From: Heptranchias perlo
Taxonomy: Eukaryota
Length of the DNA: 64,000 nt
Assembly: GCF_035084215.1 (NCBI RefSeq)
Contig: NC_090352.1
Location: forward strand, 8,370,001-8,434,000
Direction of reading: 5' to 3'
The translations under genes and the position numbers were made by a program. A model generated the notes under the pieces. That model saw nothing but the letters and a program-made list of their open reading frames with translations. It was not told where the DNA came from and searched no databases. Below are positions 14,007 to 14,744 of the stretch, one piece after another; the first letter of the stretch is position 1; every line of letters begins with the position of its first letter.

Positions 14007-14380
14007 CAGTTGTCTCTTGAGCCCCATCCATTGTCATTCTACCACTGAGCATGCGCCATCTCGCTAACTAAAATGTGGGCAGTCAAGCATCTGGCTTCAC
14101 GTACCCAGTTTCAAAAATGGAAAGGAATCTGGACACCAGTGGCTAACAACCCCCTGCAATTAAACAAAATTTCTACCCCAAAAATTATGTATCCAGCTGA
14201 GGTGTTCTCTGTGGGAGCTGGTTTTGTGCCACAGTCTGAGGGAATTTGAACGAGCCCCTGCCTCCTGGGTGGAAATCAAGGCCCCAGCAGAGGGAAGGTT
14301 GCTTGTTTTCCCATACCTATTTATCGTGGCCTCTCGAACATTATTGACTGGAATACTGCGCTTGGTCAATGTTATGGGAG

Positions 14381-14630
14381 CCATGATGTGGAGATGCCGG
14401 TGATGGACTGGGGTTAACATTTGTAAACAATTTTACAACACCAAGTTATAGTCCAACGATTTTATTTTTAATCCCACAAGCTTTCAGGGGCTTTCCCCTT
14501 CCTCAGGCAGTGTGGAAAAGTGGTCTTTTCCACACTGCCTGAGGAAGGGGAAAGCCCCCGAAAGCTTGTGGGATTAAAAATAAAATCGTTGGACTATAAC
14601 TTGGTGTTGTAAAATTGTTTACAAATGTTA
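14381..14630. mobile_element. Penelope-like inverted terminal structure (family A) with hammerhead cores on both strands
   Basis: Arms 14415-14520 and 14525-14630 are reverse complements with one mismatch; CTGAGGA..GAAAGCTT core; aatgttatgggag duplicated at 14368 and 14624. Confidence 0.8.
14535..14572 (+). ncRNA. Minimal type I hammerhead ribozyme motif
   Basis: CUGAGGA (14539-45), stem II GGGG/CCCC, GAAA (14560-63), palindromic AGCU stem III, CUU cleavage triplet; stem I is weak (G-U pairs). Confidence 0.55.
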
Positions 14631-14744
14631 TGGGAGATTGACTAGTAGTTATTCAAATTATAAACCCCAATAACTGGGGAATTAATAGCTTGATCTGTTC
14701 AGCACACTTCAGAATCGCTCTGGAATCGCATAGAGATTAGGTCA

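Follow-up and report, generated by a model that had tools for sequence, protein, structure and literature searches.

The locus described here raises the question of how a short insertion with a hammerhead core on each strand came to be an almost perfect palindrome, and whether that palindrome is itself a mobile unit. In the initial annotation of the window, i.e. the whole 64-kb stretch of DNA that was analysed, it had been regarded as a recent Penelope-type insertion of about 250 bases, free of protein-coding sequence and possibly representing a retrozyme-like family amplified in a cartilaginous fish. The answer that we consider probable is a single, severely 5′-truncated insertion of an abundant shark Penelope-like element (PLE), the mirror half of which was probably made during integration. 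The size of the insertion and its lack of coding sequence were upheld, and the features on which the argument draws are collected in Table 1.

Table 1. Positions of the insertion, its target and related features, numbered within the 64-kb window
Feature	Position	Strand	Remark
Target 6-mer ATTGAC	14365..14370	-	Inverted partner of 14637-14642
Left copy of target direct repeat, AATGTTATGGGAG	14368..14380	+	At most 13 nt
One-sided extension ('tail'), 34 nt	14381..14414	-	Left side only, without a partner on the right
Left arm, element 3′ end (pLTR-like)	14415..14520	- (sense on minus)	
Minimal type I hammerhead core, left arm	14478..14506	-	Position 11.1 changed from C to U via the 14486 mismatch
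Loop TGGT, head-to-head junction	14521..14524	no strand	Rare, variable among contigs
Right arm, inverted copy without tail	14525..14630	+ (sense on plus)	
Minimal type I hammerhead core, right arm	14539..14567	+	C3 at 14539
7-nt overlap (microhomology)	14624..14630	+	Right-arm end coincides with target-repeat start
Right copy of target direct repeat, AATGTTATGGGAG	14624..14636	+	Exact match to left copy
Target 6-mer ATTGAC	14637..14642	+	Directly after right repeat
Solo, 5′-truncated relative, other subfamily	23652..23773	-	81.6% over 125 columns
Host KDM2B-like coding exons	24338..53618	+	Five exon blocks map at 24323-53618

The palindrome proved to be as originally described, with arms of 106 nt each that are 99% complementary around a 4-nt loop and differ by one mismatch only, at 14486. 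The arm pair is the longest among the 23 inverted repeats of the window (distance of at most 400 bases), and the predicted fold of the palindrome reached -198 kcal/mol (z = -29.7), with none of 200 shuffled sequences as stable. The element 3′ ends both point outward, bordering the target, and the two 5′ ends come together at the loop, at the same base. The family letter at 14486 is G in 98.8% of the contig depth, which identifies the mismatch as a CG-to-CA change private to the left arm. With one mismatch in 106 positions, a CpG-type change off the family letter, the insertion is probably recent, as had been suggested.

Of the proposed 13-bp target-site duplication, the exact 13-nt direct repeat was recovered, but its length as a duplication was not: because the right arm ends in the first 7 nt of the right repeat, the duplication measures 6-13 nt, with 13 as the upper bound. 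ATTGAC borders a 10-nt core of the target on either side, once per strand, which makes the target symmetric; with each nick placed immediately 5′ of ATT, the left copy of the duplication would be 14371-14380. When the eight spacings from 6 to 13 were tried, a match was found at 10 only, over six leading bases. Equal symmetry at any of the eight spacings occurred at 267 of 63,800 window positions, a background of 0.4% that applies to a symmetry spotted post hoc and at one site; for ATT alone, read on both strands, the background was 0.6%. The most diagnostic part of the insertion is the 34-nt one-sided extension, which has 68% A+C in the element sense and would span 34-41 nt according to how the overlap is assigned; the ends of family copies fall at 14382-14384. 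No stable stem-loop was found in the sense tail (-1.0 kcal/mol), so that a likeness to the stem-loop of the anole element discussed below is not supported beyond base content.

The presence of a hammerhead core on each strand was also borne out. The pattern CTGANGAA-N8-22-GAAAGCTY matched three times in the 64 kb, against a mean of 0.00 over 100 shuffles, with one match in each arm and the third in the solo relative (23745-23773). In the right core, CUGAGGA is followed by an extra A, a 4-bp helix II closed by a G-C pair, GAAA and the palindromic AGCU; the CUU triplet was found where it had been placed, at 14565-14567, with the cut predicted after 14567. The core fits the minimal consensus in the extra base after A9, the G10.1-C11.1 pair, the palindromic positions 15.2-16.2 and the A/U-rich 3′ side, and its helix I is weak, consisting of two Watson-Crick and two G-U pairs. 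Helix II letters vary between subfamilies while pairing, judged by eye, is kept. As far as the excerpts of Cervera and de la Pena 2014 (PMC4209133) go, the locus shares with minimal type I PLE hammerheads all core bases, the extra base before helix II, a palindromic one-pair helix III and a short helix I, but differs from them in the weakness of helix I and in the left-arm copy, which lacks the G10.1-C11.1 pair. No shark entry appears in the excerpted Fig. S3 list of that paper. The Rfam search that had been recommended did not return a hammerhead, either in the whole 64-kb window at gathering score (0 matches overall) or among the 28 matches obtained in 14300-14700 (401 bases) at E up to 10, where the top rows were generic hairpin models under their gathering scores.

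Each strand contains one sense core with its antisense arm upstream. Helices I and II had predicted pairing probabilities of 0.0 in the full insertion and, in the isolated right arm, of 0.004 and 0.19, while forcing the hammerhead helices against the hairpin carried a predicted penalty of ~70 kcal/mol. According to these models, each strand would mask its ribozyme with its own antisense. The anole element's hammerhead requires the element's protein and is dispensable for in vitro insertion, according to the excerpted text of PMC11167929. Since the antisense comes first, the pairing probability is 0.0, the cost is ~70 kcal/mol and the anole hammerhead is protein-dependent, self-cleavage of the host pre-mRNA would be unlikely and a 106-bp hairpin is predicted in it instead. 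As predictions, the self-masking RNA and the long dsRNA hairpin put forward in the initial annotation thus gain support from fold and pairing probabilities. In the parts of PMC4209133 drawn on here, monomeric minimal PLE hammerheads do not cleave and dimers cleave at a low level; opposite-strand minimal hammerheads 100-700 bp apart are likewise already in print there. A ribozyme formed as a dimer in cis was ruled out by geometry, the two cores lying on opposite strands.

The abundance of the element was assessed with contigs from four sequencing runs (24 listed), aligned over 14240-14540. X1 and X2 are the two DNA runs from the sample that covers the locus best, perhaps the window's own sample, and X5 is a run guessed to be RNA, in which the family was covered and the flank and the loop were not. 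The fourth run, X8, gave 0 contigs here, perhaps through filtering, and neither X5 nor X8 points either way. Summed contig depth, which is not equivalent to copy number and from which some records were filtered out, was ~11 in the flank and up to 3.2 million inside the element. The ratio between the two lies at ~10,000 to 300,000 according to how overlaps are counted, and 'thousands or more' is the safe reading for the copies of the family end in the genome. Contigs exiting at 14382-14384 into long, unrelated A/T-rich flanks numbered 159 in X1 and 157 in X2, with an agreement of 0.37-0.40 among the exit flanks. The element is therefore a dispersed repeat of very high abundance whose 3′ end is fixed, and the insertion studied here is one among very many truncated ends of it and in most respects ordinary.

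The centre of the palindrome behaved differently from its arms. Depth dropped from 157,000 at 14504-14514 to 135 at 14521 and to 59-74 at 14522-14524, figures in which palindromes may be under-recovered by short-read contigs. Loop-crossing contigs with 1-2-nt deletions (three in X1 and two in X2) showed four different patterns, and by subtraction the depth left for the unchanged loop was ~21 in X1 and ~39 in X2, corresponding to two to four times the depth of single-copy sequence. Fold-back at almost this base is seen in several further contigs, which indicates that the position is not fully random. The family ends are amplified, and the TGGT loop junction is not; since depth collapses at the loop and loops differ between contigs, the palindromic unit is most probably not an amplified retrozyme-like family. 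Recurrence of the loop junction had been named beforehand as the point on which a retrozyme-like amplified family would stand or fall, and, with this junction in at most a few single-copy equivalents and with differing loops, the outcome went against a palindromic family.

Two further letters of the left arm, A at 14416 and T at 14420, mirror the target, against family majorities of G (83% of X1 depth) and A (96%), respectively. Calculated as depth differences, non-majority depth was nearly equal at the two positions in X5 (~5,200 each) and reached ~45,000 at 14420 in X1; a minority source variant is the simpler reading of both letters. RNA editing, considered for the A>G differences at 14416 and 14486, was ruled out, as the same differences occur in the DNA runs and are thus family letters.

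The solo relative in the window has the tail, the hammerhead core and the same end point, without an inverted arm, and no direct repeat of at least 7 nt was found around it. One X2 contig (depth 15.6) joins the inner end of an arm to the tail end with 14 letters between them (14518 to 14383), which may reflect a ~150-nt unit arranged head to tail, as in retrozymes, at some other place in the genome. A Greenland shark microsatellite primer holds 14 tail bases (Table 1 of PMC7816355, in excerpt), which hints at relatives in another shark order. When four terminal motifs were searched in full-text literature, a match was obtained only in this primer paper, and none that tied them to PLEs; the motifs gave 0 matches in one supplement of Craig et al. 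2021. Among literature titles and abstracts, a scope that mostly leaves out subscription papers, no description of this shark family was found.

The pattern of the insertion has been in print since at least 2013. In the excerpts drawn on here, a PLE insertion typically comprises an inverted 5′-truncated copy and, at one of its ends, a tail of 30-40 bp (Craig et al. 2021, PMC8557442), and rotifer elements show inverted pLTRs, a 31-bp tail and 8-10-bp duplications (Arkhipova et al. 2013, PMC3846280). Six features of PLE insertions were tested, and the present insertion agrees in four of them. Shared with EN+ PLEs are a minimal hammerhead in a terminal repeat, the 34-nt one-ended tail, a head-to-head inverted truncated copy, and the dispersal of copies that have a fixed 3′ end into A/T-rich targets; the target duplication is 6-13 nt here compared to 8-10 bp in the rotifer PLEs. 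Set against the inverted-pLTR insertions of EN+ PLEs in the excerpts of PMC3846280 and PMC8557442, the locus has in common the head-to-head ends, the palindromic junction, the one-ended tail, a target duplication that is short (6-13 nt here) and the strong 5′ truncation, but only the two ends remain, without an ORF, and the likeness is one of anatomy.

Membership of the PLEs is likely on these anatomical grounds, rather than by way of a tied RT or GIY-YIG sequence, and the Penelope-type origin proposed in the initial annotation is supported to the same extent. A search with the tail pattern for a link to RT or GIY-YIG sequences gave 0 matches in viral, metagenome and prokaryote contigs, which are non-shark collections and hence uninformative in this respect. 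Similarly, the 46-residue frame ending at the tail ATG (with stops as X) yielded no candidate among proteins of 82-2000 residues, which is a weak test.

A further parallel is Poseidon PAc of Anolis carolinensis. According to the excerpted text of Frangieh et al. 2024 (PMC11167929), the PAc protein, a predicted dimer with a preference for ATT on each strand, nicks both strands and, starting from two sites, extends them independently of homology, and the PAc tail is the stretch between the two start sites. At one of the two start sites, which lies in an AC-rich stretch, reverse transcription of PAc begins 111-118 nt beyond an ORF start that is placed at stem II; here the start of helix II and the tail end are separated by 115-118 nt, and by 114 nt in the solo copy. 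The two systems thus have in common a hammerhead ~115 nt upstream of an AC-rich terminus, a tail between two end points, ATT by the predicted nick on both strands and A/T-rich flanks. They differ in that PAc priming is homology-free, whereas the tail-less end overlaps the target by 7 nt here. PAc was compared by description and not by alignment, and its excerpted paper gives neither a stagger length nor an explanation of inverted junctions.

For the preferred reading of a single truncated insertion, the following course of events may be proposed, each step of which, including the fold-back, would be deduced from one locus. The element endonuclease would nick both target strands ~10 nt apart, and cDNA would be primed by the 3′ end of the top strand, beginning at the RNA's tail end. 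Synthesis would halt after ~140 nt, just beyond the hammerhead, whereupon the cDNA end could fold back over the 4-nt loop and copy itself. This copy would stop, or be cut, at the tail base and be joined to the other target overhang via the 7-nt match, and host repair would fill in both strands; the hammerheads would be passengers from the pseudo-LTR. Fold-back is preferred because the exact symmetry of the arms and the 7-nt overlap follow directly from such copying, and the same-base arm ends and the 4-nt loop would be its direct product. Palindromes at head-to-head junctions have been interpreted as self-priming before, with the argument that self-priming would require an antisense template (Arkhipova et al. 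2013, PMC3846280, in excerpt); the antisense-template self-priming described there differs from the cDNA fold-back proposed here. A still more specific reading would make the site an in vivo footprint of PLE integration, in which ATT(GAC), present on each strand at a distance of one helical turn, is recognised by a dimeric endonuclease that leaves 10-nt overhangs, followed by cDNA fold-back and by capture of the cDNA at the tail base through short homology. We put this detailed reading forward as a tentative one that is, taken as a whole, rather improbable.

The outer ends of the insertion are equally well explained if two cDNAs were made instead of one, with a dimeric PLE enzyme priming each nicked strand, one at the tail end and the other at the tail base, and the products then being joined head to head. 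The two-start, homology-free priming of the anole element fits this as well as it fits fold-back at these ends and counts against the specifics of the latter: in the excerpts of PMC11167929, the protein is a predicted dimer that cuts and extends both strands, prefers ATT and uses two start sites that bound the tail. ATTGAC on both target strands, 10 nt apart, points in the same direction. It is, however, hard to see why independent products should both end at one and the same base, and homology-free priming would presumably make the 7-nt match on the tail-less side superfluous, so that we consider an origin from two cDNAs unlikely. A mirror half that arose after integration, when a solo truncated copy made or perfected the palindrome by repair or template switching, could account for the letters at 14416 and 14420 as copies from the target, since both mirror the target against the family majority. 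Yet the intact target repeat encloses both arms, the tail has a typical length and a minority source variant accounts for the letters more simply, all of which makes a post-insertion origin very improbable.

Copying of the palindrome as a whole to new sites, as a retrozyme-like or MITE-like non-autonomous unit, would agree with the great abundance of the ends and with centre-crossing contigs of ~5-7 single-copy depths that reach the right arm. Against it stand the loop depth of ~60-135, compared to 157,000 some ~10 bases before, the variable loop letters and the window's other copy, which is a solo end; moreover, RNA with a 106-bp hairpin would be expected to be a poor template. As described in the excerpts of Cervera and de la Pena 2020 (PMC7229834) and of Li et al. 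(bioRxiv 10.64898/2026.07.22.740005), retrozymes consist of units that follow one another in tandem, head to tail and each with its own hammerhead, and they form circular RNAs. Non-LTR retrozymes in these sources resemble the locus in being short and protein-free, in having a type I hammerhead and in their kinship to PLE ends, but the locus is arranged head to head, with one sense hammerhead per strand, and lacks the head-to-tail order by which retrozymes are defined. We therefore regard whole-unit copying as quite improbable. An artefact of assembly or of library fold-back would be consistent with the observations that none of the listed contigs spans the whole stretch, that the contig with the exact loop was not singled out, and that the best runs contain 0.67-0.68 of the sampled words from 13900-15100. 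It is nevertheless barely credible, as the flanks are not mirrored and a target repeat, a one-sided tail and a CpG-type arm mismatch are all present. In addition, the left junction lies within a 427-nt contig that shows 0 differences over 14240-14403, reaches 23 bases into the element from the left flank and was present in two of two DNA runs (X1 and X2).

With a single truncated PLE insertion as the preferred reading, the locus constitutes a clean minimal case for the open question of how PLE inverted junctions and tails arise. In the excerpted text of Craig et al. (PMC8557442), the origin of inverted pLTRs and tails is named as needing mechanistic study, and that of Frangieh et al. (PMC11167929) leaves the steps following priming unvalidated. 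Should the footprint reading be true, thousands of young ends in one shark genome could settle the origin of junctions and tails by counts of target symmetry, overlap length and arm-shared variants. Long nuclear dsRNA would be a predicted product of hairpins of this kind, should they turn out to be frequent in shark introns. The observations do not indicate a host function for the insertion.

The window contains a plus-strand host gene with CXXC and F-box exons, which has a CXXC-PHD-F-box order and is KDM2B-like. A 119-residue piece was 100% identical to a Heptranchias perlo record, 'lysine-specific demethylase 2B-like', from a hexanchiform shark, in support of the cartilaginous fish host assumed in the initial annotation. 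The first 14 residues of the host protein had no match in the window (best 6/14); because these codons are absent from it and hence lie upstream, the insertion would fall within the first of the coding introns, with transcription on the plus strand. No demethylase exon was found by Pfam in 145 of the 199 plus-strand stretches 5′ of the CXXC exon, including all 116 that start before 14245. The JmjC domain is absent from the listings of the H. perlo record and of shark homologues. A gene of this kind without JmjC has the architecture of FBXL19, of which the host gene may be the orthologue.

Other repeats in the window include a perfect 21-bp palindrome with a 5-nt loop (13211-13257) and a 56-bp inverted repeat of 95% (3826-3988), both without a flanking direct repeat of at least 7 nt. 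A perfect 18-bp inverted repeat with a 12-nt loop (27514-27561) is situated exactly at the start of an RT LINE fragment (27515-28567) and is possibly a fold-back at the LINE 5′ truncation. An endonuclease/RT LINE is present in three copies, at 17450-20224 (-), 57180-59585 (+) and 36491-38307, with frameshifts or stops, and two of the three are 97.7% identical over 2.4 kb. Finally, positions 4669-5046 hold a tandem array with a period of ~70 bp, visible as self-matches offset by 70.
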